NCBI GenBank assembly: GCA_905178155.1
Contig: CAJINV010000003.1
Location: 7,398,601 to 7,462,600 of the forward strand
Length of the DNA stretch: 64,000 nucleotides
Origin: Amoebophrya sp. A120
Lineage: Eukaryota > Protista > Dinoflagellata
Direction of reading: 5' to 3'
Position 1 is the first letter of the stretch; each line of letters opens with the position of its first letter. Below are positions 10,001-61,087 of the stretch, in pieces. Below the pieces are notes generated by a model, which saw only the letters and a program-made list of their open reading frames with translations, made no database searches and was not told the origin of the DNA. Position numbers and translations under genes: made by a program.

Positions 10001-13000
10001 AGCGCCGCACTGGCATCACAAGTCGATCATCTTAAACTTACAAATATTTCCTGAAGAAGATTGATTACATCACAAAGAAATTCCACAATAGCATTTAGAA
10101 AAAAAATCCTGATGGGGCCGGGCTGCGGCTGCGCATCCGAAATATCGTCTAAGTACTACGCATACAGATATTTATTGTGAGACATATCTATACTTATGGG
10201 GTGGCGGGGGCGACGTTTCTACTGAGCATAAGACCAGGAAGTTCTTCTTGTCGTTGAAGAAAATTCCGTATCAGTGTGCAAAACTCACCGCTCTCTGTAT
10301 CATAGCAAAAATAGCATCAGAAACGACAGCAGAGGCGCAGCTTCTGTGTGACAGGAGATCCCGGCACATAGTTGGAGTCGAGTGCTACAACAGCTTGTCA
10401 TCACCATGCAAGTCAGTGCTCAAAGGCAACGGCATGGGTTGCAATTTAAATTTTGCCTGTCAAAGAAGCGGGAGGGGGGGTTGTGCACTGTCATATTCCG
10501 CGCGCGTCCGGCCAGTGTCGACCCATGCCCCCCGAAAGTAGCAGTGTGGAGTCCGGCTCTTGAAAGAGGAAGTGGTCGTTTCGGAGTTTCTCCTCCTCTT
10601 CGTAAGTGATCCCGTTAGGCTTGGGTTCGTACGACTTGCTGCCCACGTATGAAAGTGCAGAACTCCCGCTCCGCCTGCTTGCACTTGCTTCTAGAAGGGC
10701 ATGATGAAGATGAACAAGAGCAAAATACAAATAGTAGCAGACGCAACACCAGTATATTAACAGAGTAGTTGTAGTTGACAAACGAACCTTCATTCGAGAC
10801 GGACAATCTGCGGCTATTTCCGCTCCAGGAGCTCGTCACGCAGGCAGCGTACAATTGCCAAAAAGCTGAGCATGGAAATCGAAATCCTAATCCAACCGGT
10901 GCTGCACCTCATCGCACTATTGGTATTGCTCTCAATTTCGCATCACAAGTGTAAATGAAAACTAGGGGGAGCTGTGCAGGGTCGCTTCATACCGCGAGCG
11001 GATAGTAGTCGCCTTTCAGATCCCCTTCCAAGGTCATCAGTGCCTTCACCACTACTCGTTCAAGCTCCCGCCATCATCGCAGCGTAAAGCACACTCATAC
11101 CAGAAATCAACCGGATCAATTTCACGTAGGTGTGTTTCCGGGACAGAAAGTTTTGCGATGCTGATCTGCAGCAGGGGCAGGGTTCTGTCATGCATCCTGG
11201 AGCATGGAAGTAATGCAGACCAGCGTGACAAAGGTTTGTCATGCTCAACAAACAGCCTGATTTCTGGCTCCTGACCTGAAAAATGAAAAAAGCATTACAA
11301 CTACGAAACTCATTTTTTTCTGGCATGGGTGTAGTTCTTTCCTGTTGGGTAGGCGGTCCTCCTTGGTGCATGCCGGCGGGAGCCGCAGGCCGCGAACGCT
11401 TCGCCCGGTCCGCACGCGGGAAGATATCACGTACTGCCCCGTCGGATCAATGTCAGTGGAGTCCAGCTATCCGCTGAAAATCTTTCAGGGTCAGGAACGA
11501 AAGAGCCGAAAATTGCTATTTCTATGTTGAAATGTGGCGGCTCCTTCCGGGCAACATCTCCACCAAGTAAAGGTGGCGGGAGCGGTCTAGTCTCGTTTTA
11601 CGTCAATACATTTGAATAGGAGAAACAGCTAGAGTTTATGACTTACAACAGAGGACATCATAACGTCAATGTCAACCGACGAGCAGCATGACAGCACACT
11701 GCGCGTTGCATTCGTTTTCCTTTTCGCTCTTTTCACCTTGCTGACATGAGTGCTTGCAAGCATACCAGCTTCGAGATGTCCATATCTGTGGGGTGGACTG
11801 CGTCTGCCGCATAGCCGCCGTATCAAATGTAAAAGTGTCTGGGTCTGGAAGAATGCAACTTGTGATGCTGCATTTGGATTCCAAAAAAATTTGTATTGCA
11901 TGAGTACCAAAGGAAAGGCAATTTTTGCTACGCTGAGAAGGCATTTGTCATGCGGAATACGCATCAAGAAGCCCTCAAAAAATCTGTATTGCTATGGGGT
12001 GCATCACAGATATCATGGCTCATGCAAAACGTGCACGACAAGTGTCAGATTCTTCCAGACCCAGACACTTTTACAGTTGATACGCCGTGTCGGATGTCAA
12101 TGATCGGGTCAAACAATTTCGCAAAAACCTGCCAAAATGCACGTACAGTTCACCTTCTCCTTCACATTATCAACAAACTCTTAAATATAAAATATTCTCT
12201 TTTGCGATGCGCGATATGAGGCTGGGACGAAGCAACTACGAGGAAAAAAAAAAGTTGCCGTACGTTGTAGCTCTCCTCATCCCCGGCGACGATACCGCAA
12301 GTCTTGATCATCGGGTGGCCCTTGTTGTCCATGCCCGTTTTGATGCAGCGCGCGAGGCCGACGCCCATCTCCGTTTTGAGGTCCTTGAGTTCGGCGTACA
12401 GGTCGGGATTCGCCTTGAGCACATCCGTCATAATGCTGTTGTGGTGGGACAAGTCGGGGCACTCGTCCGGGCACACGTCGTGGGGGAAGCCGGGATACTC
12501 CTCATCCCCGAGGCCGGGCATGAATTCGTAGATAAACTCGCCCTTCTCCAGCGCTTGTTCCATCTTGATCAACTTCGCACAGCCCTCGATCATGTTGTTC
12601 ACGAGAGCCACCTCAGACACGCCTAACCGGTCCGAGTTCGAGATGTCAAAAATCCCTCCCACGGCGCCGGAATCCACTCCCGCACCCCCGCGGGCCTGCA
12701 AACGCATCCCCTTGCAGATGTCACGGAAGTCGTGTCGGGCGGACAACTTGGGCAGCTATTTGAACAATTTGGGACTTGTTCGAGGGTGGTTCCAGCTTTG
12801 GAACATTGAAAACAAAAAGCACAACTGAAAAGGACGAACAAAACGCGTATGATCAGTTCGAGCTGTATGTGTAGCTGTATCTCTATCTTCACCACCGAAG
12901 CTACCACATTTACCCGAAGTGGATAGTTAATATGGGCGTGCGGGACTGCAAACCAGAACAAGGAGGAGCAGTAGAAAATCTATGCACAGGTAAAATAAAA

Positions 13001-16000
13001 AAATACGAACACGATCAACCCAGTAAGAAAGCACTACCTTGACCATGACACTTGCTCGCAATCCAGTTCCGAGGTTGGACGGGCAGACGAGGACGTATCC
13101 CAAATGGTCATTGTGCATGAAGTCGTATCCCTCCGCTTTTACGACGTCCTGCACGGCGTTGCAGCCACTGACGAAGCGCTCGAAGACCTCTTTGATGTCG
13201 GCTCCCATCTGCATGGAGATGATCCTATCCCATCGAGAAAAAGCTAGAACCGAGACCGATCATGTACATGCGGCGCTGTTTCAGATGCAATTAAAAAAAA
13301 AGCTTAATATGTTGAGTTCGAGAAAGTAGTAATTGTAATTCCGCGATGATCCCATCAACCTGGGCCGCCGCGGGGAGCCCATAGCACTAAGCCGCCGTCC
13401 AAACCATGCAAAAACGACATTTGTTTCCGATAATTTTTCCGCTGTCCAGCTTCCTTTTTTAGTTACCCAGCGGATGTTGGAGTGGATCCTCGTTCCGCTT
13501 TTTTCATCTCTGGGATACATTCGGGTGTGGTCCTCCTCGTTGACCCAGACCAGGAAGTTCTTTTTGTCGTTGAAGAAAATACCGCGGGCGTCCGGCCAGT
13601 GCCGACCCATGCCCCCGGAGAGCAGCAGCGTGGAGTCCGGCTCCTGAAAGAGGAAATGCTCTTTGCGCAAGGTTTCCTCCTCCTCGTAGGTGATCCCGTT
13701 CGGCTTGGGTTCGTAGGACTTGCTGCCCGCGAGCGGGTAGTAGTCGCCCTTCAGGTCCCCGTCCAGCGTCATCAGCGCCTTGACCACGACGCGCTCCAGC
13801 TCGCGGCGGCCCTCCTTCGTGCACGCCGGCGGCAGCAGGATACCCCGGATGCTGCGGCCGGTCCGCACGCGAGTCGAAATCACGTACTCGCCGGTGGGAT
13901 CGATGGAGGTCGTGGACAATTTAGAAACATCCATGTCAGTCGGATGCTTTGCGGTTTTGGCATACCTGTATTCACGTTGGTTCTTTCTCGTCGTGACCCG
14001 ATGCTGTCTGTCATCTTCATCCGCGAGGCAAAAGCTGGAAACTTGTTGTATACAATGCTGCGTGGTATCAGACTATCTGTACTACTTATGTGCAGATCAT
14101 ACAGTAGACAACTTCCAGACAGGAGCCGTGGCACTTTTCTGCAACTGACGTATGTAGTAGTCTTTACTCTGTGGCAGCACTTGCACTAGCGCCACAAAGT
14201 GCTTCATATAAATTGGCCGCCGCCGCGCCACAAATCGACAAAACATTTGAGTTGTACAGCTCCCTTTGCACAACTGAAACTGATGAACTGCACGAAGGAG
14301 CAGAATAAAGTGAGAAGTTGCTCACCGAGAAGATCGCGCCCTTATTCAATGTCAATCTTTCTTTTGGATGAAACTGTGATGAATAAAGTTGCGGCGTCAA
14401 CATCAATGCTGTACCCTCCGTGGCGAATGTCGATAACGGGATCGAAGTATGAGATTGCAAAACTCGCCCTCCCCCTCACTTGAGTGGCATGAACAGCAAC
14501 ACAAGCATTGGCAGAAGTGTGGCCTCCGCATGACAAATTGCAGTGCGGTTTGGATGAAACTTGTCATGCTAAACAGAAGTGCGGCACACTTTGCCTCCCC
14601 CTTTGCAAACGGCCGCAGATGGCTGTCACGCAGGGAAGGTAGGTCAGGCGGACACCGAAGTGCACAACAAGGTCAGGCGGACACCGAAGGATGAAACTTG
14701 TCATGCACAACAGACCTAAGAGGGAACGAGTGGACATGGTATTTTCCATGACAAATGAGGGAAAGGGGAAGTTGTGCAGTCTCATACGAAGAGGTCGGCA
14801 AACACAGTCCAGGACTCCTCGTCTCCGGCCACGCAACCGCAAGTCTTGATCATCGGGTGTCCTTTGTTGTCCATGCCGGTCTTGATGCACCGCGCGAACG
14901 TCACCCCTCCGGCAGTATGGAGTTCTCGAGCGTTACAGTGTCCTCTGTTGGCTACACACACTTGCGGTGCAATAACAAAATGAACAATGAAACCCCTAAT
15001 TAATAGCTCGTAGAGCCGTGTCATCTTCCACCATGAAAGAGTGAAAGGGGGAGCTTGCTCCTCTCGCATCAAAACTTACTTCGGCACAGAGAGACATCAA
15101 TCCTGTTTGGACATGCGAAGTAGCTTGATTGCGTGGGCGTGGTGCTGGCGGCTGATGGCGATTTTGGATGAAACAGCAAGCAACCAGCTAGCAATGTAAC
15201 GTTATTTGAGAATCTCATGCATAGCTAGTAACTTTGTCCTTTAGATTTGCATAAAGCGTCGGGTCCTTCTTCAGTACGTCGGTCATGATGCTGTGAGAGT
15301 CGAGTAGTTATTTGAGGACTTACAAGCGAAAGACCGCACCTGTGGCTTTGGATGGCAGCGAGTTTTGCATTTTTTATTGCAAGCTGGTTGCACTTCGTTC
15401 ATATGCGGCTGATGCTACGTACTGGGAAAGAGAAAAAGAAAAAGTGGGCAGCGGCAAGAATACGTAGGAACAAATTTAGACGTACCTATTGTGGTTTGAG
15501 AGGTCCGGGCACTCGTCCGGGCACACGTCGTGGGGGAAGCCGGGATACTCCTCATCCCCGAGGCCGGGCATGAATTCGTAGATAAACTCGCCCTTTTCCA
15601 GTGCCTGCTCCATCTGCACAATCTTCGCGCAACCACTGATCATGTTGTTCACCAGCGTCACCTCGGATTTTCCGAGGCGGTCCGAGTTAGAGATGTCGAA
15701 GATGCCGCCAACAGCCGCACTGTCGACGCCCGCACCACCCCGCGCCTGCAGACCCATGCCCTTGCAGATATCCTTGAAATCGTGTCGCGCGGAGAGGAGC
15801 GGAATCTTAACCATCACGCTGGCGCGCAACCCGGTTCCGAGGTTAGACGGGCAGACGAGGACGTATCCCAAATGGTCGTTGTGCATGAAGTCGTACCCCT
15901 CCGCCTTGACGACATCCTGCACGGCGTTGCAACCCGTCGCAAACCGGGTGAACACTTCCTTGATGTCGCATCCTGTGCAAAAACGATCATGTTCCAGAAG

Positions 16001-19000
16001 TAGCAAAGTGGGCATTTCAGGAAGTACCTACACCGAGAAGCTTTGGCTGTTCGTCGTGCAGGACATAAACAGGCTGCGCGGCTGCACAGAAGGATCTTTC
16101 ACACTTGCGGGCAATTTGAGGCTGCTGCGCGTGACAAGTTTGGTTTCGCCATGCAGCAAGCGTCTGTAGCTAGTGCAGCTGCATCGCATTCGCAGATTTA
16201 TACTCATATAAATGATCCTAGTATAACAAACTGCCAGACAGCATCAGAAACAGAGAATGCTCCTCATTGGGCTGCGCATGAGAAAAATCCTGAGCATCAG
16301 CCTCAGCATGCAAACTTGCATGACAAATCTGAGGTGGGGGACCTCCAGACCACGTTTTTACAAGGATATGTCGGCGCCCATCTGCATGGAAATAATCCTG
16401 GTGTGGTCCTCCTCGTTCACCCAGACGAGGAAGTTCTTCTTGTCGTTGTGAAAGATACCTCAACTATGCAAAGCAAAATTTCCTTCTTGACAGTTTCACA
16501 TCAGGTTCGTTCCTGGAGCCGCAACCTTGTTCAGATCAGCTGTCTGCCACACGTAAAATTAATGCGCAGGAGCACACACGTTCGGTGACCTCACTACATA
16601 CGATCTCATCGTGGTCCTCGTAGATGATAATAGATTTGTCAAGTCAGTGTTAGTTGCTGAATCAATCAGGAAAAATGTGTAACTGTAAATAGGCTTTTCT
16701 GGTGGGATACCGACCCTCGGGCCAGTGTCGGCCCATACCGCCCGACAGCAATAGAGTGGAATCAGGTTCCTGTTCCATTGATTTTCATCAATTTTGCGTT
16801 TTGTGCTCGAAGTTCTATGTATACACCCGTCGTTTCTTGTCATCAACAGCATCACCACTGTTAGTAAAACTAGAATCGCCCTGGCAAGAACAGTGATAAA
16901 CATATAACTCAAACAGATGTATCAGGGTGCTTCAAAAACTAGACGGCTGGGAAGAGGGCTACTTACATATCTTCACTGTGGAGAGGTGGACCATAAAACC
17001 TATAGAAAAGTGAAGTACTTGGAAGAGGAAATGGTCTTCGCGCTTCCGTTATGAAATGCAAAGTTGTCTGGATCGGAAAAATTATGCTAATATTTGGATA
17101 ACGAGAAAACTCCGATACGGAACTCCTCGGCATGACAAGTTTTTCCGCGACAGCGTCTTGGGTAGATCGCATGGCATGAGCATGACATTGACACGCACAG
17201 GCACACGCTCACCCTCACGCCCCGCTTTTGCATGACAAATGAATGACTGACACCGCGTCGCATCAACATGGAATATAGAGTTTTGACTCGTGTTGTCAGA
17301 AATATTTATGGCATTTCGAGTCACACAAGCTTGCAGACCCAGACCGGTATAGTTGATTTGATATCTGCTCCTCCTCTTCCATCGTCATGCCCGTTGGCTT
17401 CGGGGCGTAGGACGTCGACCCTGCGAGCGGATAGTAGTCGCCCTTGAGTTCGTATGGAGGGTCACTCAATTGTACTATCACTGTTTTCCAACTTTCGCAT
17501 CCAAAATACTTAAGTAAATGTGCCCACCATGTCGCGTTTGCAGAAAGACAACAGATGAAATCTCCGTGTGCCAAGAATTGAATGTTGCTTCTTGTCTTTT
17601 AAGGATTTTGTAGTAATGCTTGAAATGCGAAACTGTATGTAGTGACGGTCATTCTCATTTCTTCTTACATAGTTCGCCCTCCAGCGACATCAGCGCTTTG
17701 ATTCTTGCAGAGAAATGTGCCCCACCTTCCGAAAAAAAAATGCAGAAAGCCTCGCCATGACATCCAATTTCTCATGTTCGACAGATGAAAGAGCGAGCTC
17801 GCTGTCCCAACTTCTGGAACTGGTGAAAATTTTAACTTGTCTCTATCTGACAATTATCTCCCCGGGAAGGGTTTTTTCTCAACGTGATACTCACCACGAC
17901 GCGCTCCAGCTCCTTCCTGGAGTCCCGGGTGTGGCTTGGAGGCAAAACGATGCCACGAATGCTGCGGCCGGTCCGGACGCGGGTAGAGATAACGTAGTTT
18001 GTATCGAGGTAAAAATCTCTGAGTGACAACTCATTTACAGAGTCGCAACAACGCTCGCCGGGCGCGCAAAAAAAATCACGGTTATCGTGCTTCGCAGACA
18101 CTCCTTTTGCAGCATTTTTTGCCCGGCAGGCTGTAAAATGTAAATGTCATTCTTGTTTCCCTTCATTGCGTTTTGCACGAGACCAGTGTCGTCCGAAGGA
18201 TGAAGAGGAGAACCAACGGCCCCTCGGGCAGAAGTACTAATTTAAATATAAGTACTTATTTCTGCAGCTGGTCAAAAATGCACAGGAGCTACAGAAAGCC
18301 CGTCACAGTAGTAAACGAATGTCACACATCACTCCTTTCTCGTCAGTAACTTTATCAAATGTAAAAATGTCTGGGTCTGGAAACTTGTGATGCTGAGTGG
18401 CGTCTCATGATGAGGCCACAAATGCAAATGCTGGCTCAGCATGACAAGTTTCTGAGCTTCTATCTAGGTGTTGCCTATTCTGCATGACAAACTGCGTTCC
18501 TGCATCACAGAACAGTGGAGCTCTTGGGTGACGTGCATGACAGATTTAAGAGTCATGCCAGACAAGCATGACAAACATGCATTCTTCCAGACCCAGACAT
18601 ATTTGCATTTGATAAACTTCCCGTCGGGTCAATTTCTGTGTCCAGCAGTTTGGACACGTCCATGTCGGTTGGGTGTTTTGCGCTCGCAGGGTAGCTATCA
18701 AATGTAAAAATGTCCAGGTCTGGAAGAATGCAACTTGTGATGCTGCGTCTGCATTATGCAAAAATCTGTATTGCATGAACAGCAAAAGAGGTCTGGTTTT
18801 GGCCCCGGCGAGAGGGCATCTCTCATGCGGTATAGGCATCAGAAAGCCCTCACAAGATCTGTGATGCTAGGGCATGCATCGCAGACATCAGGAGTCATGC
18901 AAAATGTGCATGACAAACTTTGCATCCTTCCCGACCCAGACATTTTTACATTTGATAGTAGCCGCCATGCCGAATATCAATCACCGGATCGAACAACTCG

Positions 19001-21926
19001 GCAAACATGCTGAACGACTCTTCATCACCTGCGACGCAGCCGCACGTTTTCACCATCGGGTGCCCCTTGTTGTCCATTCCTGTATTTGCTTGTTTTGATT
19101 TCGTCGTGTTCATGATGAATCAGCACTTCTCACACGGCTGCCACCATAACTGCCCGCTTCATTCTTTGATTCTGTGCACTAAGTTGTAACAGTGACCATG
19201 TCGCGCGGCACGCTTCACTCTCATGTAGAAAACAAATGCACACGCAAATCTAGGACCAGCACACCACGCACAGGCATCACGGACAGACCTTTGCGAATTC
19301 GGGTCCGATTTATTTTCGGCTTGTTTGATGTAACAAGAAAGTTCTCAACATGACAAAGCCGGAAACGCACCAAATTCCACCTGCCCCTCTCTTTTATAAT
19401 AATTTCACGAAACTGCACCGCAATATGCTCCTAGTGCAACAAAATTCTTTTTGTTTTTAGTGATGCCACTATATAATTTACATCTACAGTACCTGTTTTG
19501 ATGATTCTGGCAAATCCCACACCCATGGCGGTACGCTTCTCCTTCAGGGTCGCGTAGATACTCGGGTCCTTTTTGAGGACATCGGCCACCTTCATCACAT
19601 TGCAAATCGTTCCTGGTCTGTTCGTGTACTTGTCTTCTTTCTGCGATTTTGCAAAAAGAACGAAATCTTGCGCGCGTGTTTTATTGGCCTGAAAAGTAAC
19701 GCTAACGTCATGCTCAGCCGCAGGGTAAGGGGCCCAAGAGAGAAATAGTTTTGCTGCCGTATCGATCATGGGAAATTGATTGGGGAAAGACAAGCAGGAA
19801 TGCAATTTTTGTTTCTGACGTTTCATTCCGGCTTCATGTTCATCCAAACGCACGACAAATACGACGTCCTAGACGGTGGATTTTCACAAATCATACTGAT
19901 GGAGGCGTGCTTGCTGAGGTCTGGCATTTCGTCCGGGCAAACGTCTGCCGGAAAGCCGGGGTACTCCTCGTCGATTGTATGAAATCAAAAACCGCTGCAG
20001 CTAACGTTTATAATTACGCTGTGCCCTCCGAATACGACTTTTTGCAGTTGCATTTGAAACTCTTCGAATTTCAATCAACTTGTTGATTCACGACCACCTG
20101 CAATGATCTTCAATGCCTCATATCGATTTCTGATTCTGTCTCGTCGCAGCCGACACACTACAACATTCTTAGGATGACTCACGTTATTAACGCAGACTAG
20201 GTACAGCACTGTTACTGTTGTGATACCCCAGACCCGGCATCGAAGCGTAGTCCGGTACGTTGCTCGGCACAATGGCAATGGATTCCTCTGCCGGCGCCTC
20301 TGCAGGTGCATCCGGATCCGCAGCCGCTGCGCGGGCCGAGGGGGATCCGGCGGGGGAGTCTTGTCCTTTTTGCTGCGACAGGTACGAAATCATAAATGCC
20401 AACGGATCGCCAGGCTGTTTCGCCAAAAGACCGTGAATCATGCTTTGCAACGTCCCTTGCACCTACAGTTTGAGAAATCACATCAATTCAAAAGAGCACT
20501 TGGCGCATGAGCATGTTCTTGTACGCGACAGGAAAATAACCGTCATCATCATAATCATCTTCATCATCAGGAACAGGATTATCAAAATTGGTGCTAACGT
20601 TTGGAGGGTGCCCCTGACCGCCCCCGCGCGGCCGCCCGCAGGCATAGCTATAAATTCTCATGCAAGTATATGATCTAGAATGCTAAAAAGGAATGCCGTT
20701 TCTGAGTACGATCGACGGCTGCACCGGCTCGGTCGCTGAAAAATGTGCACAGGTCCTCATGGAGTACGTTTTCTACTTCGTACAACCAAGAAAAATCGCT
20801 AGTAGTTGCGTAATATGCGACAACAACAGCGATGGAGAAGAGAATCATTGACGCATTGGCATTTGGGCTTGGGGCATCTTCAAAAATAAGTACAACGTTT
20901 TCACTTCTACTCATCCAGCAGAAACAGAAAAGCAAAAACAGGGATAGAACATATAGTATCATACCGCGTGTTCGTCCAGATATTTTGTGGCCTTCAGAGC
21001 CGATTCATGCCGGCTAGAGCGGGACTTGTTCACATCCTGTTTCTGGCTGTCCGACGTACAGCCCAGCGTGAGCTTGATGCCGCTCTCCATCTCCACGAGC
21101 TCGTGGAATTTATCACGGAGAAAAGTCATAAAAAGCTGGCATACAATATATATTTTTATCTCAACGAAGCTTTCATGCAAAAATGGTTCTGATTCTGAAG
21201 CTGCCGCGCATAAGTATGTATGTACCTCTGCACACTTGATGCCCATGACCAATTCGTTCGTGTTTTGAATAGCATAATATTACACAGTAGTTTTGGTTGT
21301 AAGCTAGCTTTTGTTTGCAGTGTCGTAGAACTGCGGGTCTGCTTTCATGGAGCTGAGCGGAACGATTTTTGATGCCACCTTCTGAAACACGTCCACCTTC
21401 ATGGTGGCGTGGTTGGACGTCGGAAATGGAAAGGGGGTCGCATCCGCACGAAACGGGGCCTGTCGCCGTTGTTCCCCGATCCGAAGAGTGTCAATCGGAA
21501 AACTAGTACGACCCTCAGCCAAGGAAGGCAACTACACGCTTGCGCGGCAAGACAATCTTACTACAGCACGACCTGCCCTTTTTTCTACATCTTCAAACAC
21601 GTCGAGCCTCCCTAGTAACCCAGTAGATTAGCACATAGCCAAATCGGTCTTGCACACATCACACACTAGCACCATCATGTGGGTAATATCTGTTAGTCTG
21701 CTATATTATACTTCAGCACGATGGAAGTGCACGATCAGTGTCCTCAGTTCTGCAACAGGAGGCGTCGCGAACTTCATCTCTTGGTTTTTTGTAGAAATCT
21801 TACGCAAAACAATCCTTTGCCTTTCCTGGCGGTCCACCGAGAGTGGCACCGGTTCTTTCCACGTCCATAAATAGACACGTAGGCCTTGTCCGGAAGCCCC
21901 TCGCCAGACACCACACTGACGTTCAT
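7046..21926 (-). CDS. Three-domain creatine-kinase-type phosphagen (ATP:guanidino) kinase with N-terminal C2-like and Dpy-30/RIIa-like regions; roughly 30 exons
   Basis: Three collinear copies of GMDNKGHPM(I/V)KTCGxVAGDEES, [32 protein letters not shown] and DISNSDRLG (domain 1 ~19975-15560, domain 2 ~15560-12510, domain 3 ~12510-7150). Upstream exons read KYLDEHAV|[27 protein letters not shown] and [18 protein letters not shown]...[11 protein letters not shown]. Start and stop are approximate. Confidence 0.92.
7942..8299. mobile_element. TA-ended introner in kinase domain 3
   Basis: Direct repeat CCACC; ends TATCAG...ACGATA; excision gives KSEV|DLVNNMIR. Confidence 0.85.
8334..8732. mobile_element. 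TA-ended introner in kinase domain 3
   Basis: Direct repeat TTCGA; excision gives DISN|SDRLG. Confidence 0.85.
9358..9732. mobile_element. TA-ended introner, decayed direct repeat
   Basis: CGTAG/CATAG flanks; excision gives KAEGY|DFMHN; right end resembles that of 62386-62570. Confidence 0.75.
9864..10230. mobile_element. TA-ended introner in kinase domain 3
   Basis: Direct repeat AGACC; excision gives NFLV|WVNEEDH. Confidence 0.85.
10269..10495. mobile_element. Family C introner
   Basis: TATCAGTGTGCAAAAC...GTTGTGCACTGTCATA; direct repeat TTCCG; excision gives DARG|IFFND. Confidence 0.88.
10648..10991. mobile_element. Family C introner, decayed direct repeat
   Basis: TATGAA...TTCATA; CCACG/CCGCG flanks; excision gives YYPLA|GSKSY. 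Confidence 0.8.
11468..11764. mobile_element. TA-ended introner with weak inverted repeat
   Basis: Direct repeat CCAGC; excision gives DISKL|DSTDIDP. Confidence 0.8.
11821..12082. mobile_element. Family A MITE-like introner
   Basis: ~34-bp near-perfect TIR TATCAAATGTAAAAGTGTCTGGGTCTGGAAGAAT; direct repeat CGCCG; excision gives DIRHG|[11 protein letters not shown]. Confidence 0.95.
13226..13517. mobile_element. Family D introner, decayed direct repeat
   Basis: TATCCCA...TGGGATA; flanks GATCC/CATTC; removal plus 5 nt gives EEDHTR|IISMQ. Confidence 0.75.
14448..14786. mobile_element. Family C introner
   Basis: TATGAGATTGCAAAACT...AGTTGTGCAGTCTCATA; direct repeat CGAAG; excision gives ADLF|DPVID; internal tandem duplication AGGTCAGGCGGACACCGAAG. 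Confidence 0.9.
15969..16368. mobile_element. Introner with CA...TA ends
   Basis: CATCCTGTGCAAAAACG...CGTTTTTACAAGGATA; direct repeat TGTCG; excision gives MGAD|IKEVF. Confidence 0.85.
16465..16709. mobile_element. TA-ended introner, decayed direct repeat
   Basis: Flanks TCAAC/CCGAC; removal plus 5 nt gives WPEGR|GIFHND. Confidence 0.7.
17050..17363. mobile_element. Degenerate family A introner
   Basis: TATGAAATGCAAAGTTGTCTGGATCGGAA...CAGACCCAGACC...TTTGATA; flanks TCCGT/TCTGC; removal gives EEEEQ|KREDHFLFQ. Confidence 0.75.
17453..17671. mobile_element. TA-ended introner in kinase domain 1
   Basis: Direct repeat GTTCG; excision gives LEGE|LKGDYYP. Confidence 0.8.
18353..18614. mobile_element. 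Family A element at an exon/intron boundary
   Basis: Family A TIRs; direct repeat AACTT. Excision alone runs into TGA, so it forms part of a longer intron ending near 18000. Confidence 0.88.
18696..18957. mobile_element. Family A MITE-like introner
   Basis: TATCAAATGTAAAAATGTC...GACATTTTTACATTTGATA; direct repeat GTAGC; excision gives DIRHGGY|PASAKHPTD. Confidence 0.95.
19978..20225. mobile_element. Old TA-ended intron, direct repeat lost
   Basis: TATGA...TGATA ends; flanks differ, but removal plus 5 nt gives MPGLG|DEEYPGF as in the two inter-domain junctions. Confidence 0.6.
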
Positions 21927-33507: not shown

Positions 33508-33508
33508 C

Positions 33509-33955: not shown

Positions 33956-33969
33956 CACGTCCATGCACC

Positions 33970-46321: not shown

Positions 46322-46358
46322 AGACTTATCCTCAGGAAAGCCCCCACTTGCACTTTCT

Positions 46359-49930: not shown

Positions 49931-52900
49931 CTACTGCTGCTTCACACCTTTACAGCGGGAATTCATCGTCGGCAGAGATTCATTTTCCAGGTATAGCTCT
50001 TTATGAGCAGCCCATCCGGCCCTCTCCTTGTGCCGATCAAACAAGTCCCGTAGCGCCGCAACATAACGCGTGTGCAGGTCTTCTACCTGTGCTGCGGTGG
50101 GGTAGAAGCCTTCCGTGCCGATGTTATGGCTTTCCATCCCTGGTGTTTCTCCATGTTGTTGTTCTTGTGGTCGTGAGGTAAAATCATAGTTCTCTTGTTG
50201 CGCTTTGCAACCATCGTTTGGGAGATCTTCCCCAGGGGATCGAGCATGCTGTCCGTCGTGCCTCACGACCGGAGCGATCGGCTTCCCAATATGCACTGCA
50301 AATATGTTTGCGTCTGGAAGGATGCAAATCCAAACTGTGTGTGATGCCGTCTTTAGATTCTAAAAAAAGTAGTATTGCATGACCAGCAGTTTGTGCTACG
50401 CGGACGCGGAGAGGGCTTTTCTCATGTGGATTAGGCATCAGGATCCCTCTCAACATCTGTGATGCTAGGTCATGCATTACAGGCATCATGCTGATGCCAT
50501 GAACATGATGGGTCATACAAAATATGCATGACCAACCTGGCAATCTTCCAGACCCAGACATATTTGCACTCGTACCCAATGCAAACCACCAATTTCCGTC
50601 GGTATGGTATCGGGCCGAATGGAATGCCGAAGCGGTCGGTCCAGTAAACCAGCGACGTTTAAAATGCACGAAAAAAAAAGTATCAGTAAGACACGAGAGC
50701 GAAGTCAAGGAAAAGGAATACGATGAAGCCGTGAGCATGACAATACTTGTCTAATATCAAAAAATATCTATATATTGCAAGAACGCAGGCTTCCTTGTGG
50801 TCGCGAGTAGTGCCCAAAAAACAGTATCAACAAGAGCGGTCGATACACATTCAACATACCTGTGTCACATTGATCTCGACGAAAGATCCCTGTCACGAAA
50901 CGCAAAATTACGTGGCCAGACCAAGACATTCACGTATAATTTATTCCCGCGAGGTGAAAACAAAATTCATCATGTTGGTCTCCCTGGACGAAGGCAAGCT
51001 GCGGAACTACGTGCATTTATTTTGAGACCTCTTTGATGTCTTAGTTTCATTTTTTCCTGCATATTTTCAGCTTCGAACTAACTCGGGCGAAGAAAGACCG
51101 GTGCGTGAATTTGCGATCGAAGATCTGATTCGCACCCATGCAGTAAACCGGAACCAGAAACGCGTTTGTTTGCAGAGCCACCTTGCAGAACCCCTGCCGC
51201 TTGCGGAGCACAATCTGTTCTTCTCCTTCGGTGCCGTAGAACATTTCCGTGATGCCACCCGGAAGCAGTGTGAGGAAGTTCTCCGGGAAAGGTCGTTGAA
51301 GGTTGCGCCGCAACTCCGAAGCAGAGACTTTCGTGAAGCCGAACTAGGTATCGTATTGAAAAACTGAAGGCCTCATTGCCCCAGGAGACAGCGCAGGCTC
51401 ATCCTGCAAATTATTGGCCCCAACACATCACTCGCTTTACTAGATGTTGGACGCATATAATTTTCATATTTATCACTCAACAGTGCAGATTTCTAAGGCA
51501 GGAAGATGAATAGGCACTGCGTTGTTGTAGCGGCCGCGAGGACCTGCTATAATACAAAAGCTGCCTTGCGTCTCCAGAAACCAGACAAGTAGGAAAGAGT
51601 CATAGTTCTTCTTCTTGCGTCCAAGTTAGTAGACTCATACAAGAATTTCAGTTTGGGTTTGCCTGTGACCGTTCGCAAGGGTGGCGCTGGGCATCAACTT
51701 TTCATCTTTATACCAGGCCAGAAACCGGCGCAGAAGTGGCAGTTTCGTCAACACATCCGCACCGGCAAAAAGCGGAAAAACCATCGGTCTGAAAAGAGGC
51801 CCTCCACCAGATCAAAGTACTTAATGCTTACACTGCAAAGCTCGCAGCGGGTGCAGCTGCCGTGTTTCAACGGCAGTACTTCAGACTCGTCCACCACTTC
51901 TCTTTCAGCTGCAGCATAGCGTACTCTTTAGGTGGAGCTTCGTCTTATTTCAAAGCTGAAGCTCTGGAAGGAAAGATCCACTCTGAACATACAATGTATG
52001 TATGTAACATACATACATACATACACGTTCCACGCGGCTTGCTTGCTTGCTTGGGTGCGCCCCATTCCTCGCAGCTCGCACTTCTGATGGTGAGACACCG
52101 CGAAAAACGGCCAATGCTGCACTTCTGATGGTGCACGTGAGGCTTGCCGCTGGTGCGGCGTCGGCTTATGTTCTTATGTTATTATACTCCCAACGGTGAA
52201 CGCAGCACCAGGAGCCCAAGCCAGACGAAAGGTGCTGAAGCCTGGCAACGAACCTTCTGGCTCTGCGAGAGGTTTGTGGTGCTCTAAATTTGGCCCTGTC
52301 TCCCGGAAAGCGATCCACCCAACGTAGTACGGGCGAGCAAGGGTGTGAAGGAACCCTCTGCGTTCGTGATGTGGACGAACGTCGCAAGAGGTGAAGAAGG
52401 ATCCTGGAGGTGCCTGGGCCGCCTTTTTCTGGGGGGGCGACTTAGAGCGCACCGGCGGGCTCTATATCCATGTTCCTGATGGCCGCATCAATGCGTCTTC
52501 GCTACGAGCGTCGTGTTGATTGATTTTGCCACGGTCTCCCAATGTCGGCGGCGGGCTACAAGCCTTGTGCCACGTTCATCATGCATCCTGCATTCTAGCG
52601 GATGCTACTACTCCAGCTCTTCACAGACAGAGAGAGGAGGAGGGGGGGGGTCTACTACGAGCAGGCCCCCGATGTCGGGGCAACCTCTACGGCAGCAACC
52701 GGAGGGCAGACGCGGACGCACGGGAAAGGCGCAGGCGCCAGCCCTGCGAGGGCCCTGCATGCGTCCACGCGCGTAAGTGAGAAACATCCGGGGCGCAGCC
52801 CAATCTTCCGGACGCGGGCCCATGGCTTTCTGGTGCTAGGTGGCAGGGAGGCGCATGGCAGTCGCGGGCCTTCGTGTCTCGAACATCTTTGCGCGCTCGC

Positions 52901-54088
52901 TGCGTGGCCCTGTATTGGCGTCCCGTTGCCGTATGCTCCGGGGCTGCACACGCAGCCGATCGGACGCGACGGGCATGCCACAGGGGAGGCTGCAGTGGCG
53001 TGGGCAATGTTTTTAGATGCTGAAGGCGGCTCGCGATGGTCTAGCTCCGAGCTAAACCGGCTGCGACGAGCGTTCCACGGACCAAACTAGGCCAGATGCT
53101 CCACAGGCCTCGCGTAGCTGAGGCGGATACATTCTCTCACTCTGAGCGCGTTGCCAGTCGGTCCTGGCATCTGCTGGGTCCTAAAGACAGACCAAGTACT
53201 TTTGTTTTCTGGCATCTGCTGGGTCCTAAAGACAGACCTATTTCAAAGCTGAAGCTGCTCTGGAAGCAAAGATCCACTCTGAACCAAAGCACAACGCTTT
53301 TCTTTCATGCAAAACAGCACGTCCCCACGCGCGTGCTGGTGGATTCAATTCATTATATCAAAAGTCCATGCGAATGTAGGTAGACACACGCACACACACA
53401 CACACACTTGCTTCTTCACGTTGCTTGGGGCCGGGCCGCCTTGTATTGAAATAAAAACCCCGTATTTCTCATACATTTCCTTTGCCATCAGAGAATGGCC
53501 GATCCCGAAAAGCGCGTGCGGGTGGTAAACGGCCAGAAAGTTGGGCGCTGCTCCTTTGCTCTGGATGGCGCACCGGATCCTCTCTTGGATCAGATCCAGC
53601 GACGGCGCATCGTCCTCATTCACGACACCAGTTTCCACCGCCATCTTCTGTTCAGTTGAGGAAGAAGTTCCTTTCCTTTCGCTTGCAGAGGCAGTGGTTG
53701 TACGCGAGGACGTTGATGCACCACTTGTAGTACCCAGCTCGAGCAGAGCCGCGGTCTCCGCACACGTGAACTCATCGATGACCTCCGCGGAGAAGTAAGT
53801 CCGCTTGCCCTCAATGTCGTCAAAAAAATGGCACCACGCGGGCCACACACAGGGGGTCCGCAGGGGAACAGCATAGTCGAGCAGGACCACAACCCAGAAC
53901 AACTGACAGACTCGGCTTTCCACACTGATAGCCCCATACAAGGCAAAGGGTAGCGCGAAAAGCACGAAGTTCAAGCTCAAGTAGAAGGCGCACACCAAGC
54001 ACACCTTCAGTTCCGACCAGGGCACACCGAAAAAAAGAAGCCCAGGGACAGGGGATTCCGTCGTTCTCGACGAAGGGGCCATGTTCAA
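49931..54088 (-). CDS. Diacylglycerol/monoacylglycerol acyltransferase (DGAT2/MOGAT family), multi-exon
   Basis: N-terminal hydrophobic segments, YHPHALF (HPHG-motif variant), LPLLRRFLAW|FG, LLPGGITEM, RKRQGFCKVALQTNAFLVPVYCMG, PIPYRRKLVVCIG|KPI, VEDLHTRYVAALRDLFDRHK. Confidence 0.9.
50290..50574. mobile_element. Family A introner in the acyltransferase gene
   Basis: Direct repeat CCCAA; excision gives LVVCIG|KPIAP. Confidence 0.92.
51349..51712. mobile_element. TA-ended introner, decayed direct repeat
   Basis: CTAGG/CCAGG flanks; excision gives RFLAW|FGFTKVS. Confidence 0.78.
51946..53284. repeat. Direct-repeat-bounded segment inside the long acyltransferase intron
   Basis: TATTTCAAAGCTGAAGCT...CTGGAAG.AAAGATCCACTCTGAAC at ~51946-51988 and ~53239-53284; tandem duplication CTGGCATCTGCTGGGTCCTAAAGACAGACC at ~53164 and ~53209. 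Confidence 0.7.
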
Positions 54089-54502
54089 TCAGATTAACTT
54101 TGGAACTGGAACAAAACTGGAACGTGAAAGAATTTACCTGTGACACTGCAACAAAAGCCCACACGTCGGCGACGACTGATGCTACCGGCTTGAAGACCTC
54201 ACTTCTTTTTGCTAATTTTTGTTTTTACGTACTTACTTTGGAAGATTTCGGAACATTCATGTTTCTCACTCCTGGAGCTGCTTGACATTCACAGGCGGGC
54301 CCTGCTGAGTCAAAAACTACTTTCGGCTTGAAACACAAACAACAATTTGCTTCATAAAATTCAAGAACGCGGGACGGCATTTTAATGCTCTCGTCGGGCT
54401 TCGACACCGACGGGCTAACTTCCAACATATACATATTTCGTGGCGCAACTATGCCCCGCGACGACAGCAAGAAGTACCAACGTAGTGCAAAGCCATATGC
54501 AA

Positions 54503-55293
54503 TATTATGCCGAAGCTCCGCGGCCCCTGAACTTCATCAAGCCCTCTGCTCAGCCGCCCCAGTCTAGCTTACAGGCTTCCCTAGCCCTCCCAGTTCTCGC
54601 AGCCTGTGCAGTTTTTCCCGCCTTTTTCGTCTTCCCACTCTTCCCCGTCTCTATCTTCCTTGTCCCGAAGGTCTGGCCTCCCTGCCCCCTTGTGTTCCGC
54701 CGTTTGCCTCGTCGCTTCTGCGTGGCTTTCAAACTGCTCGCAGATAGAGAAACAGGTCCCGCAGCAGACACAGGAAAACACGGGCGAAAATGGCCGCCGG
54801 AATCTGTTCGCACATAGAGAAGGAGGCGGCGCGAACGCCCTCCCGATCTTTCTAGGCAAGAGCTCCGGCCAAGCTTCCGAGAAAGTCCCGCCGCGGAAAA
54901 TATGAAGCGCGCCATGATCTTCAAACGCGCGCAGTTCTTAAAATAAGCGCACGAGCAAAGATCCACAAAACGGCCCACATCTGCGGAAAAATAAGATCGA
55001 CAGCCGGCGACTTGCCAAGTTAAATGCCGCTTCATAGCCAGAATTACCCGCAAGAGCTCCGCAAATATATTTGGCCAAGAGCAGAGCGACCGCGTCTCGA
55101 ATCTCATCGACACAACCAGGACCCCAATGGCTACCTGAAACTGACTAGCTGACACAGCCGCACCCTTTCCCCCCGTCCTCCCCTTCTAGTTCTGCTTCCC
55201 CCCTCCCAGTGCTCTCGATTTCGCTTCGGGATAGAGATTCCTTCCCCCTGGCTAGTATTATGCCGAAGCTCCGCGGCCCCTGAACTTCATCAA
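54503..55293. repeat. Segment bracketed by 38-bp perfect direct repeats
   Basis: TATTATGCCGAAGCTCCGCGGCCCCTGAACTTCATCAA at 54503-54540 and 55256-55293. Confidence 0.88.
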
Positions 55294-56199
55294 AGAGCGC
55301 AATCACATCTAAAAGTATTTGGGCCTCCATCTTTTCCTATTCTCGATATTCAAAAGTTTTTGGCGCATCATCAACGATCCTGACCTGTTCCGGGCTTGGA
55401 TTTGATCGGTGAGCCCGCAATATTTTCATTTGGCTCTATTGTGCGTGAAAGGCAAAGGGAACAGAATTTTAAGTTTTTGTCTCCCATTAGCAAGCATTGA
55501 CGAGGGTCCGCAGCTTGGTCCAATCCCCTTTTGTCACAAGAAATCTCCTCCAGCTTGCTCACTCAAGGTGGCAGAGGATAAAAAGTACTTTCTTTTGCAT
55601 TCGAGAATCGAATGTTCCCTTCGCTTTGCGCCAAGTTAGGATCTACGTACTGAATCATGCCATTCGATACTTAGTAGAGCTCTGTGCTCATCACTCTCCG
55701 CACATCACGAGGACATCAAGTCTTTTTATTTAAACCGTAAAAGAGGAGGTGGTCCGTCCGCAATTGAAGATTGACTCGTAGTCTAAACTCATATGGAAAT
55801 TGGCCAACCGGTGCGCTCGTGAATATGCTCTCGCTTTGTCTCTACATTTCAAAAAAAAAATTCTCAGAAACGGAAGGCACCGTTGTTATCAACTACATGT
55901 TCATACTTCCTGCTACTCGCCACTATTCCAACTGACAGTGATACTCAGGATACATCTGCACGAGCAAGGGCATCAGTGTAAGGGTAGGTACTTTGTATCT
56001 TCGGAGGCCCAAGTCCGCATCGGCAAGATGAGCTACTCAACACAGTTACATGTACTAAATTACATATTCGATCATGGAGATGTCACCACGGCAACAAAGA
56101 AATACTAGACAAGAGTCAAGAACATCAATTTTTCTGACCCCCGCTTTTGTTGGCCCTACCACCACTTCCTTGTGACCACTCAGCGTGGTTTTGGCGCGA

Positions 56200-59100
56200 C
56201 TACTTCCCGCCGGGAGACGCACTCAGCAACGTCGGCGGAGCGCCCGGCGAAGCGACCTCGACACTGGTCCGCTTGCTAGACTCGTCGGACGCGGCCCGCT
56301 CCAGGCTCTCTTGCAGCAATCGGTCCACGTCTCCTTTGCTAGCCTTGTTCTGCGAGAGGCGGCTGTTGCGCGGACTCGCGGCTCGCCCCGTCACTGAGCT
56401 GCGGCCGTTCGGTATGACAAAGAAAGAACAAAAAGCTAGCACAGCATATATAATATACAATTGTAAATGCAAAAACAAATGAACAAGAATCAACCAACGA
56501 ATAGCTCGCACCAGGGCCCTGACTGGGCGCCGGGCCCATATTACCATAAACCATGGTGCTAGCTTATGCTATACAAGAAAGATTTCAACATCTCTGCGTA
56601 ATATCCATCGGTATCTACTAATATTGTCCTTGCGTTTACAAATATGATAGTAGGCTTCTAGCTTTTTGCTCTAGGATATTCGGCGAGAACTCGGGCGAAA
56701 ACTCGTCCTCTTCGTCGTCCACCTCGCGAATCGCAGCCTGGTCCGCCTTGCGGTAGGCCGACTGGCGCGCCCGCGTGAACCCCAACGTCCCGGACCCTGT
56801 CGGGTCGGCGGCCGCAGCCCCCGCTGCTGACGGTGCGGAAAGCTTCTTTCCGACGGCCGCATTTAGTGTCTGCCCGTTCATTATGAACTGCAAAAATGTC
56901 TGGGTCTGGAAGATTGCTGAGGTTTGTGATGCTGTGTCTGCTTGACGGAGAAGGTGTTGCATGGAAAGCCTAGCATCACAGGTTTTAAGAGGGTTTCCCA
57001 ATGCATAATCCGCATGACAAACACCTTCTTTCGGCGACAGGAAACAGAGCTCCTTTTGCTGTCTATAGCATGACAGATTTTTGTGTGATCTAAGTATGCA
57101 TCACAAGAAGTTCGCAACCTTCCAGACCCAGACATTTTTACATTTGATATTCATCCCGGCTTGCCCCCGGTGGTCCACGTGGCCAAAAATCCGCCCGGCC
57201 TCGGTCAGCCGGGGATGCGCGGTGTCAGTATCGAAGCGTCAGCATCGAAATCGACAAAGTTGAAAAAATTTGTTGCGATAACGCACAAACTAAGTAGTAC
57301 CTATATTTTTCAAAGGCACGCAAGTGAGGGCGATTCATTGTAAGCCTGTTTGGAGCTCAACATAGAGCTTGCGAAAGTAGCACGACAGAGGATGTCTCTT
57401 TTGCCCTAAGAGCATGCACAAATTTGATTTCGGTGCTCGGAAAATCTGTCACGTACCCCGGACGTGACAGGTTGTCAAGCTCAAGAATGTCTAAGCCGCG
57501 GTACAGGTTGTACACCTACCGACTCCGACTTTATGCATTTTTACAAATCATTTCAGCTTTGTCGATTTCACACCTGACACTTCCGTAGTCGGCAAGCAAC
57601 GCGGAGTCCTTTAACCGGTCTGCCGCAAGCTTCGCGAAGGTCTCCATCACTTCGGCGTCCTCGTCGTTAAACGTGGAGATCTCGCCGTCAAACTCCCGCT
57701 TGTTCTGCATTACCACGATATCCCACATAAAAAGACAGGCAGGTGGCCGTGGCTCAGGGCATATTTATAATTTCTTGTATATGCAAAAATAAATTCACCG
57801 GGAAATGATCTTAGTCATGGGCGAGCCCGTACCCGTAGCGTGCTGGTCGTTGGGATATAATGCAAAAATACAGATCTTTTTTTCGCGTATATGTATTTTT
57901 GCCCTGTCCTCTTTTTCTGTGGGATACACGAGACCCAGGACCCGTTCGCTGTTCGCGGGTTGCAGGGGAACGACCAGCATAGTCTCCGGCCGCGTGGCCG
58001 GCTCCCCCGCGATCGCGGCCGCCGATGCGGTCGTGCCCGTACAGCAGAGGTTCTCGTGGTCGCAGTATCGGGGATATGCACAGAAAATCGATCTGTCCTC
58101 TGGGCCTGAAAATTTGCACGAGACTTGTTCATGTGATGCTAGTATTTTTCGCATCAGTCAGTATTTTGCACCCACCTGTACTGCAGCGTTTCTCATGATT
58201 ATACCTGGCCAAGTAAGTATTGCATATATAATACTTATGTCCATGGCGCTTCTTTTCACTTTGCATGTCTCCGCTGCACGCATTGATAAACAGACTTCCG
58301 TGCTGTCGTGCAGAACAGTTTGGCTCTGTTCCAGATGAACCAGACACGTTTGCAAGAACGCATAGAGGATCCTCCTGAACGTTTTCGGAATTGATGGTCT
58401 TCTTTTGCCGTAGGGCCGCCCCGCTGATCCCCACGTGGTCGGGGATGCGCAGCTCGTGCGACCCGGACAAGCTCCACAGGGTGCCCCTGCTCTCCTCGTG
58501 CAGGAACACGGCACACTGGTCACTCTGCACCAACTCGTGTGCGTGGGTCGTATATCCTGTGTAACTAACGACCCGTCCCCCTCTCCTAGTCAAGGTGCGG
58601 ACTTGTTTGCTACACAAATCAACAAGGCTTGGCTGCTGTGGATGACGAGTTTGGACTCGCGGCGTGATCGACATCGTGGATAGCTAGTGCGCCGGCCGCA
58701 TCATATTACACAAAATGAAAATCTTAACTTGCATACACAAAATCCAAAACACCATATACAAAAAGCTGTACAACTTATGGGGCTGCGCATGAGCAGAGAC
58801 ATCCTCACCGTGACCATGCGAATTTGCACGAAAAATGAATCCAGGGTGGGCAGGATTTTAACGAAGTACTTAGGATATCGTGATCGTCAGGATCATGCTC
58901 TGGGAGCCCAGATTCTTGGGGAGTGAGTTCTATAAAATGCAAAAATGTCTGGGTCTGGAAGAATGCGCGATTTGTCATGCTGCTTTTCCATGACCCATGA
59001 AGTCTGGAATGCAGGACCTAGCATGACAGATTCTGTGCGATCTCTCTCATGCCTATCCTGCATGAGAAACTCCCTCCCGACTTGGTCAAAACTGGACGAC

Positions 59101-61087
59101 TTTTCGTAATCATGCAACACAGATTTTTGCATGCTCCAGATTTAGCATGACAAGTTGCATTCTTCATCCAGACCCAGACATTTTTACATTTGATAAGTTC
59201 AACATCGAAATCATTCCCTGCGCCCGCTTGCAATGCGCGATCGCGTCCTTGTACACCTCCGCGTTACGTAGCGTAATCCCAACCAGCTGCATGAAGTTTT
59301 GAATCACAATCTCGTCCGCCTCGGTAAACACCGTGGTGAGCCCGTCGTCTGGTAAAATAAAGTAGTTATTCATCATGGTTTAACTTTAAAATGAGCTTGA
59401 GTGTCGTGAGATAGTACTCGTATAAAACTGCTAGCTATCATACCTATTGATCTGATCTGATCAGATTGATCAGTATAAATGGATTTGTTCAACGACAAAC
59501 TTTGGCAACAATCTGCAAGAACTCAAGGTGATCAGGCATCAGGTTCAGGTTGACTGCGCCGTGGTGTGCTGTCTCATTAGAGAAGTTCTACTGAAAAAAG
59601 TAGTAGCCCTGTAGGACTTTCACCAGTACAACTCATTTACCTTTGTTCAATGCCTGCAACACTCCTGTGACGTTTCCCTCAAAGTCCAAGATTGGCTTCA
59701 CGAGAATTGACTTGGTGAGGTACCCCGTCAGTTGGTCAAAAGAGGGATCAAATCGCGAGTCTCGGTAACAATCTGCAATATTCACCTGGATGGAAATTAA
59801 TCAGAGACACAGGTCCAGCATGCTACTTTTCCAGATGATGATTATCGTATCAAGCGTCCTGCTAAACTACCTCTGCGAATGCTATAGCTAGTACACAATT
59901 TGCTTTTATTAAAACTTATGTTCCTCGTTCAGGAGCCTTGTGGATCATCAAGCAAGAAGAACCTCCTGATCCTGTACGTCACTGCTACAAGAAAAAACAA
60001 AAACAATGGGTACGACTTACAGTTTCTCCGGTCTTGAAGACGTGCCCCGCGATTCCCTGCCCCGGGTTTACGCGTATAGGCTTAGACAGGTTCGAGGCAG
60101 ACAAGATCAGCATTTTGATTTTCTTGTCGTAGATGAAGATGCTTACCCGATTATGCAAGAAAAAAAGTGTGTGAGTGTAAGTCTGTGATGCAGAAAGTGC
60201 AAAACAGTAGCTTTTGTCATGCTGGACGTGCGTCATAGCCATGTTTTATACGTGTTTTCACGTACGAGCTGCGCATGACAGGTTTTTTTCTGTAATGCAA
60301 AGCGAATTTGTGATGCTGCTCGTCCCACACGATTACACTTACACACTTTTTTTCTTGGATACCGATCACACTGCAGTAGCCTCACGCTCTCCTTGATGCA
60401 GATGTTGATCGATTCCGCGGGGACCTGTGAAGAAAGTCATATCTTCTTTATTATACTTACAGATTATGCAGGAGTTTACAGTTTGTTTATTACCGTAGAA
60501 AAAAAATAAAACATAAGCATTCTTTTTCGCAATATCAGTGAAGATCGGCTCGGTCGGAAAAACAAAGAGGCTTCATAAATCTTCTTCTATCGCAGTCCAT
60601 TAGTATCCTGGCGGAAAGAACACGTGATTGATAAGATAAACCACAATTAAAGATAAGAGTCGTGGACCTACACGATGTACGGATGTTGAATAATCGCGAA
60701 CTCGAAATAAGTTAGATAGTAGTATCGGAGACAAAAAGAACTCAGTACGATTTCGTGAGTTATGTTTCGTGTGGCCTCAAAAAGGCGGATGAACCGGTCA
60801 ACGCCGATGTCGTGGTCGCAAGAGCCGTGCGCAGCCGCAACCGAAAACTTTTCAAGCGGATACTCCTCCCGCAGTTTTTGTAGAAGGAATCGACGGGGGT
60901 CGGCCGGGCGGCTTTTCAGCAAAGATTGCACCACCTCTTCCACCGTCTGAGTGATCTGGCACTGTCCGGTCTTGCTGGACGTGCAGTACCGTGCGAAGTC
61001 CGAAAACCCCTGCTGCGCGCAGTAGGCAGCAAGCTGGTCCGGAACCGAAGCGCTTGCTGCGGAAGCCGCAGTCTCACTCATCACCAC
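56200..61087 (-). CDS. Dpy-30/RIIa-like dimerisation motif plus tandem GAF-domain protein
   Basis: VEEVVQSLLKSRPADPRRFLLQKL; GAF-A LLQCDR|VSIFIY...GQGIAGHVFKTGET...DSRFDPSFDQLTGYLTKSILVKPI...GVLQALNK...FTEADE; GAF-B ELVQSDQCAVFL...GISG...EDP|RY...VMQNK...FNDEDAE. 3' end uncertain. Confidence 0.85.
56882..57149. mobile_element. Family A introner, reverse orientation
   Basis: Direct repeat TTCAT; excision gives open frame GQAGM|NGQTL. Confidence 0.9.
57719..57926. mobile_element. Family D introner
   Basis: TATCCCACATAAAAGA...CTTTTTCTGTGGGATA; direct repeat CACGA; excision gives VLGLV|VMQNK. Confidence 0.9.
58075..58364. mobile_element. Degenerate family A introner
   Basis: GGGGA/GAGGA flanks; excision gives VQEDP|RYCD (GAF DPRF-like motif). 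Confidence 0.78.
58553..58877. mobile_element. TA-ended introner, decayed direct repeat
   Basis: TATCCT...AGGATA; TCGTA/TCGTG flanks; excision gives ILTIT|THAHELV. Confidence 0.8.
58931..59195. mobile_element. Family A introner, reverse orientation
   Basis: Direct repeat AGTTC; excision gives SMLN|SLPKNLG. Confidence 0.92.
60152..60361. mobile_element. Family B introner
   Basis: TATGCAAGAAAAAAAGTGTGT...ACACACTTTTTTTCTTGGATA; direct repeat CCGAT; excision gives LLQCDR|VSIF. Confidence 0.9.

Follow-up and report, generated by a model that had tools for sequence, protein, structure and literature searches.

Internal eliminated sequences (IESs) of ciliates are transposon-derived, have repeats at their borders, lie within coding frames in both orientations and leave the DNA. 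Here we examine family A, a set of short elements with terminal inverted repeats (TIRs) in a 64,000-nt stretch of Amoebophrya sp. A120 (contig CAJINV010000003.1, positions 7,398,601 to 7,462,600), hereafter the window, whose own numbering is used throughout. In contrast to IESs, the A120 elements stay in the DNA, and the cut follows transcription.

Family A belongs to the A120 introners already published (Farhat 2021, PMC7789003). Those introners are described there with TAT-starting inverted repeats carrying an A-run, direct repeats of 3-5 nt, a length of ~240 nt, non GT-AG borders, validation by RNA and a hairpin model; organism label, TAT repeats, 3-5 nt direct repeat and non GT-AG character are the same as for family A. 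In the same paper the border position is called unknown and the splice sites variable (Fig. 3 legend), the nine top A120 motifs of Table S4 all start N-T, and most spliceosome proteins together with U2, U4, U5 and U6 are retained, with U1 snRNA not found. In another Amoebophrya, GT-AG introns and U1 have been found (PMC12005148). Sections on A120 in two reviews (PMC11282704 and PMC11453091) restate Farhat, an Entamoeba preprint only cites it, and the accessible passages of Gozashti 2022 and 2025 give no A120 register; PMC12621601 belongs to the further literature on analogues. No published cut register or orientation test for A120 was found in the literature within view, which left subscription journals and supplementary figures S14-S25 outside, and the passages of text and supplement available from Farhat 2021 hold no analysis of element orientation. 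The single register, the polarity of the constraints and the removal in both directions seen at this locus go beyond that paper. What is added to published work is the fixed, transcription-polar cut and a candidate branch A, two-way insertion alone being expected of a TIR element.

Two-way introns from TIR introners are already known from Polarella glacialis and Aureococcus, where several classes form introns in either orientation with ordinary splice dinucleotides (Roy et al., bioRxiv 2020.10.14.339549). These are likewise described as DNA transposons with duplications; there, however, a GT/GC/GA-AG pair is supplied by element plus duplication and targets are constrained, whereas such a pair is absent from every register of the family A copies (0/9). 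Euglenid nonconventional introns are reported to share with A120 a likeness to miniature inverted-repeat transposable elements (MITEs), complementary end triplets, fixed spacers, free terminal dinucleotides and direct repeats (PMC12501133, PMC11282704). In the same accounts they carry CAG/CTG at +4 and N3/N5-6 spacers, open the exon with a purine and yield circles, whereas A120 has TAY at +2, N1/N4 spacers, a free first exon base and a +1 position that drifts to G; the A120 TIR-type introns do not show the euglenid pattern N3-CDG...CH'G-N5-6 with a purine exon start. A relaxed first donor base (VTATGTT), an invariant short distance from branch to acceptor and end-to-end pairing are shared, as described, with Giardia and Trichomonas (PMC6679479). 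Introns of the latter differ by their AG end and extended CTRAC branch motif (its A at about -8 in our own reading) and are few and ancient, while in A120 AG is absent, A-7 is the sole fixed position and mobile elements are the source of the introns. Similarly, Fritillaria borealis is reported to have MITE-derived non GT-AG introns that an adapted U2 spliceosome removes (PMC13326754, PMC11282704), but with AG-AC/AG-AT as preferred ends, U1 retained and U2AF duplicated, whereas A120 introns end NT-NN and U1 snRNA was not found.

Family A copies and their removal in both orientations

Self-BLAST and a motif scan gave nine family A copies of 256-285 bp in the window, the eight named in a preliminary description of this DNA and an extra one. 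Each has TIRs of ~30-50 bp at its ends and an exact 5-bp target duplication (9/9). Five interiors are in sense A (plus strand): 1500-1755 (duplication 1495-1499/1756-1760), 11821-12082 (11816-11820/12083-12087), 18696-18957 (18691-18695/18958-18962), 42923-43186 (42918-42922/43187-43191) and 50290-50574 (50285-50289/50575-50579). Four are in sense B (minus strand): the extra copy at 18353-18614, which lies at the 5' margin of an older intron that starts with TAC, 28663-28946 (28658-28662/28947-28951), 56882-57149 (56877-56881/57150-57154) and 58931-59195 (58926-58930/59196-59200). Orientation was called from interior alignments after removal of 55 bp at either end. The expected sense outscored the opposite one in 36/36 pairs, scoring between 10 and 186 where shuffled sequences reached at most -6, and the orientations originally claimed for the eight copies hold. 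The ends are built of a TAT-starting inverted repeat, a less conserved spacer and an A-run, present at both ends in 8/9 copies; the 50290 copy has TAC instead of TAT at one end. TIRs, a fixed-length duplication, multiple copies and both orientations are the traits of a MITE, a non-autonomous TIR transposon. No transposase was found among the Pfam matches of the window's open reading frames (ORFs; 297 of 363 of at least 75 aa submitted), and Rfam gave zero matches in the window. Family A is best explained as a miniature DNA-transposon-like element of A120, genome-resident in either orientation.

The host genes lie on the minus strand, as first proposed: Pfam-positive frames were found in 8/149 minus ORFs versus 0/148 plus ORFs. 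Protein searches returned P0001 and P0121, both named Amoebophrya sp. A120, and the unnamed P0125; exact peptide blocks place all three on the minus strand, over spans that include the copies at 1500, 11821, 18353, 18696 and 28663. The deposited A120 proteins are already without family A copies.

We then consider transcripts. Four contig runs (X1-X4) are taken as RNA because they give zero cover of the intergenic segment 54394-55356 and because a GT-AG intron of 292 nt is skipped in all of them, their loose end at 59350 matching 59643 onward. In all four, the sense A copy at 50290 is missing through a joint of 50284 to 50575 (290 nt removed), and the sense B copies at 56882 and 58931 through joints of 56876 to 57150 (273 nt) and 58925 to 59196 (270 nt). 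The removed unit is the element plus one duplication in 3/3 copies of the stretch compared, with no added letters, by record coordinates, at 50290 and 56882. Removal of both orientations, claimed from open frames, is thus observed in transcript-like contigs for these three copies. Same-length in-frame G[TCA]..AG pairs near 18696, 50290 and 56882 are unused by RNA or protein junctions, and the other nearby in-frame pairs of this kind mostly alter product length. The transcript joints numbered 13, of which two were dropped, 50568 to 56895 (TIR-to-TIR, side of 22-23) and 52035 to 52259 (multi-copy, in a single run); 51775 to 53453 was retained despite a short side of 23. Among raw reads, run X9 yielded 29 partial reads and run X10 yielded 57, which are uninformative on splicing.

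A fifth contig run, X5, covers all 30 bins and has the behaviour of DNA. At five junction sides, contigs of this genome-like run continue from exon sequence into the element, at a depth of 25-28 (single-copy) with 0 differences; two of the five sides reach the 31-letter bar and the other three have 26-28 letters. The absence from somatic DNA that characterizes ciliate IESs is therefore not seen in X5, the sole genome-like run compared.

The cut register of TIR-type introns

Family A copies are flanked by perfect repeats and do not place their own cut. We therefore turn to all 49 mapped junctions, 40 of TIR type, 8 of plain GT-AG introns and one compound (18614), the last nine being set aside. 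With j as the count of upstream-repeat bases kept in the exon, j=4 fits 40/40 TIR-type introns, j=5 35/40, j=3 32/40 and the mirror register j=1 24/40; the mirror register is thus ruled out by 16/40 introns and the forward register by none. The corresponding rule, N|TAY...AT(A/G)-NNNN|, matches 40/40. Perfect repeats leave the cut ambiguous in 18/40 introns, all family A copies among them, while the 22/40 with drifted repeats share a single register without exception (rough chance ~1e-6, if registers are independent and uniform). One intron, 21869, has an equally good alternative register.

RNA at 51712 and 58364 sets the lower bound of the register, and five protein-mapped introns set the upper one. 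At 51712 (TAT-type intron 51345-51713, minus strand; joint 51342 to 51712, 4/4 runs, 369 nt removed), a GT..AG pair spanning 370 nt is present but unused, the cut falling between the A and G of that AG. The intron at 58364 (58070-58365, minus strand; TAT-type with a decayed TIR) is out in X2 and X3 and read through in X1 and X4; it has the weakest end pairing among the RNA-seen introns (n=1). Residues shared with sister domains exclude j=5 at 19895, 17889 and 13517, in the first two cases also with the orthologue from A25, and because of this sharing the exclusion does not depend solely on annotation. The older TAT-type intron at 19589-19896 (minus strand) fixes the register alone: only j=4, a cut 1 nt before TAT, restores the conserved Ile-Met. 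Its direct repeat matches at 1/5 positions, and that of another older intron (19974-20226, minus strand) is gone (0/5 matches at 20225), both being cut in the same register; this contradicts the role of pointer once suggested for the 5-bp repeat. For family A, j=4 in both senses would follow by extrapolation from these older introns.

The compound intron 18614-17996 (619 nt) carries a family A copy one base inside the 5' end of the older intron. It is predicted to obey the 4-nt tail rule only if family A goes first, in which case a Ser codon would differ from that of one-step removal.

Conservation within TIR-type introns is polar as well. At j=4, T at +2 is found in 40/40 versus 33/40 for the mirror A at -5 (p 0.012), A at +3 in 40/40 versus 37/40 for T at -6, and A at -7 in 40/40 versus 35/40 for T at +4 (p 0.055); pooled departures at +2/+3 are 0/80 against 10/80 at the mirror sites (p 0.0014, post hoc). 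A-7 is unchanged where its pairing partner becomes C. The U+2 and A+3 of a U2 donor are thus present in 40/40, in a register partly chosen on the same motif, but the terminal G...AG of U2 introns is not: G stands at +1 in 18/40, giving GT-start hybrids, and AG ends none of the 40 versus ~2.5 expected by chance, a weak depletion. Where repeat base 5 is mismatched, the intron copy is G in 6/7 cases, with one case opposite. The first exon base is G13 A11 C10 T6, and the U-run at the 3' end is not stronger than the A-run at the 5' end in the TIR-type introns compared. All nine plain GT-AG introns start GTA.

These observations revise the early proposal that strand-specific internal signals are dispensable. 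The interior, which is asymmetric, need not face one particular way. Strand-specific signals themselves are not dispensable, because one polar register fits every TIR-type intron, the mirror is excluded and U+2, A+3 and A-7 are invariant; they lie within the TIR. The companion proposal that the symmetric ends set the junction agrees with this, the TIR presenting polar signals in either orientation.

Host genes and neighbouring features

The best mapped host is a three-domain creatine kinase gene (7914-21926, minus strand) in which 31 introns are mapped: 22 of TIR type, 8 plain GT-AG and 1 compound. It crosses the copies at 11821 (domain 3), 18353 and 18696 (domain 1). Sister domains and the A25 orthologue served as empty-site controls for its introns; this orthologue (P0123, 88% identical) has no indel at the two exonic junctions, 11821 and 18696. 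Introns of the three kinase domains (11816-12087, 13962-14414 and 18691-18962) lie within 5 nt of one aligned position, two being family A and one GT-AG. A general clustering of intron positions across the domains was considered and rejected (5 pairs vs 2.8 expected, P 0.15).

The copy at 1500 is exonic in a minus-strand gene with no assigned function; residues 1-559 of P0125 (1945 aa) map over it, and the junction is exact with 261 nt out. At 28663, a minus ORF of 1084 codons and one of 568 become continuous once 289 nt are taken out, and the 1053-aa P0121 crosses the site. A minus ORF extends 589 codons upstream of the P0121 start (30390-32156), and the deposited P0121 may have a shortened N-terminus. 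For 42923 the basis is frame evidence alone, a minus frame of 250 codons that is open once the element is removed. The 50290 copy lies in a diacylglycerol acyltransferase gene (DAGAT Pfam matches). The acyltransferase gene also holds a 1677-nt TAT-type intron (51776-53452) with a multi-copy stretch near 52000-53200; the X9/X10 raw reads match only 52470-52505, with loose ends of poly-T. The host of 56882 and 58931 (55500-60400) mixes TAT-type and GT-AG introns and has no Pfam match; we take some of its segments to resemble GAF domains.

Elsewhere in the window, two exact 38-bp direct repeats stand 753 bp apart at 54503-55293, and an X5 contig of single-copy depth skips the DNA between them, through either polymorphism or assembler pruning beside a multi-copy stretch. 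Two segment pairs of ~75% identity in the same order (35502-36818 and 46359-47303) suggest a duplicated gene or domain. Two neighbouring arrays of short palindromic tandem units (~19 and ~29 bp) occupy 33338-33952.

Mechanism of removal

The cut is polar with transcription, the repeat is dispensable and the elements are retained in DNA; removal therefore takes place, almost certainly, at the RNA level. The preliminary description had held that a ciliate-IES-like excision from DNA, with the 5-bp repeat as pointer, would predict the same orientation pattern; it would act in a transcribed somatic stage. TIR and duplication anatomy and orientation independence do fit a transposase-derived excision, and a rare excised form could have escaped, as contigs drop rare variants, one genome-like run was compared and its table lists 15 of 307 joints, dominated by cross-copy TIR joints. 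This explanation is nevertheless scarcely credible: X5 retains the elements at single-copy depth, the contigs without elements also lack the GT-AG intron and the intergenic DNA, the cut follows transcription, and the repeat is dispensable at 20225 and 19895. Removal from RNA guided by the direct repeat itself, by template switching or repeat-guided ligation, would leave the register unfixed. It could accommodate the introns with perfect repeats, family A included, whose cut is unplaceable, but not the single register shared by the drifted repeats or the intron without any repeat, and we regard it as very improbable.

An excision of Euglena type deserves more attention, though we still hold it to be unlikely. 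A protein machine at the base of the TIR hairpin would cut 1 nt ahead of the stem and 4 nt beyond it without a spliceosome, ligate the exons and release a full-length circle. Strong RNA hairpins in both family A senses (z -7.3, for 56882, and -7.2), the better pairing of own than of swapped ends in 29/33 older introns, the reading through of the weakly paired 58364 intron in 2/4 runs, the dispensability of both G and AG and the U1 snRNA not found in A120 (PMC7789003) speak for it, as do the similar geometry of the Euglena code and the circles described there (PMC12501133, PMC11282704). On the other hand, 10 terminal pairs are broken among the 40 introns while U+2, A+3 and A-7 remain constant, 4/33 older introns pair their own ends no better than swapped ones, and the drift of +1 to G generates hybrids that the available Euglena accounts call rare.

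We consider it probable that a relaxed U2-type spliceosome reads signals in both inverted ends, with the branch at A-7. The observed first step is insertion with a 5-bp duplication, in either sense, and the exit of element plus 5 nt from RNA is observed for three copies. The 5' cut, known from older introns and presumed for family A, would fall 1 nt before the TAY of the TIR and the 3' cut 4 nt past its last base; the mRNA would keep four bases of the upstream repeat plus one from the downstream copy, by which any target is restored. N-U-A-Y would then act as a donor with a free +1, plain introns here starting GUA, and the invariant A-7 as branch point preceded by the U-run. The acceptor would be placed by distance, with no AG, and end-to-end pairing may take over from the missing U1 snRNA in bridging the ends and would have to open for catalysis. 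Orientation would be irrelevant because a reversed copy presents the same ends. In favour of this scheme are the removal of both senses, the one register with its polar invariant positions, the drift of +1 to G, the GTA start of the plain introns, the N-T starts of the Table S4 motifs and the spliceosome components kept in A120 (PMC7789003), with the Giardia donor, fixed spacing and end pairing as a precedent (PMC6679479).

Several points weigh against the spliceosomal scheme and the register on which it is built. The branch role of A-7 is proposed from its conservation, no lariat having been seen, and A stands at -7 in only 3/9 plain GT-AG introns. The A120 geometry, a short 5' spacer, a longer 3' spacer and complementary triplets, resembles the Euglena code, which is thought to be non-spliceosomal. 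Pairing of own ends exceeds the mean of swapped ends in 29/33 older introns, and A-run and U-run are equally retained at both ends, as an enzyme reading the hairpin would also need. Several motifs of Table S4 in Farhat 2021 are NT-AG, so the genome-wide share of AG ends may exceed the 0/40 seen here. As to the register, RNA alone permits j=4 or j=5 (11/11 each), the upper bound being protein evidence; TIR registers were those with the best TAT match at the two ends, a choice that inflates invariance but not asymmetry. Finally, the four transcript-like runs are one sample, whose 'RNA?' label is guessed, none being recorded as RNA.

A120 may use a second splice code, N|TAY...A-T-R-NNNN|, read by a U1-less spliceosome with a transposon-supplied branch A and a 7-nt count to the acceptor, G+1 and AG being ignored; we regard the case for this code as evenly balanced. 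If it is true, a TAT-ended transposon would from the outset be a perfect intron, whatever its target and orientation. More than half of the A120 introns must be removed with neither GT-AG nor U1 snRNA, a problem that dates from 2021. One transcription-polar register reduces the 'unprecedented variety' of their splice sites to a single rule, in which the variable letters are target-site bases, and this rule explains how such transposons fill exons free of target or orientation constraint. The candidate branch A names the nucleotide that would distinguish spliceosomal from Euglena-type excision, and makes the question of splicing in this organism directly testable.

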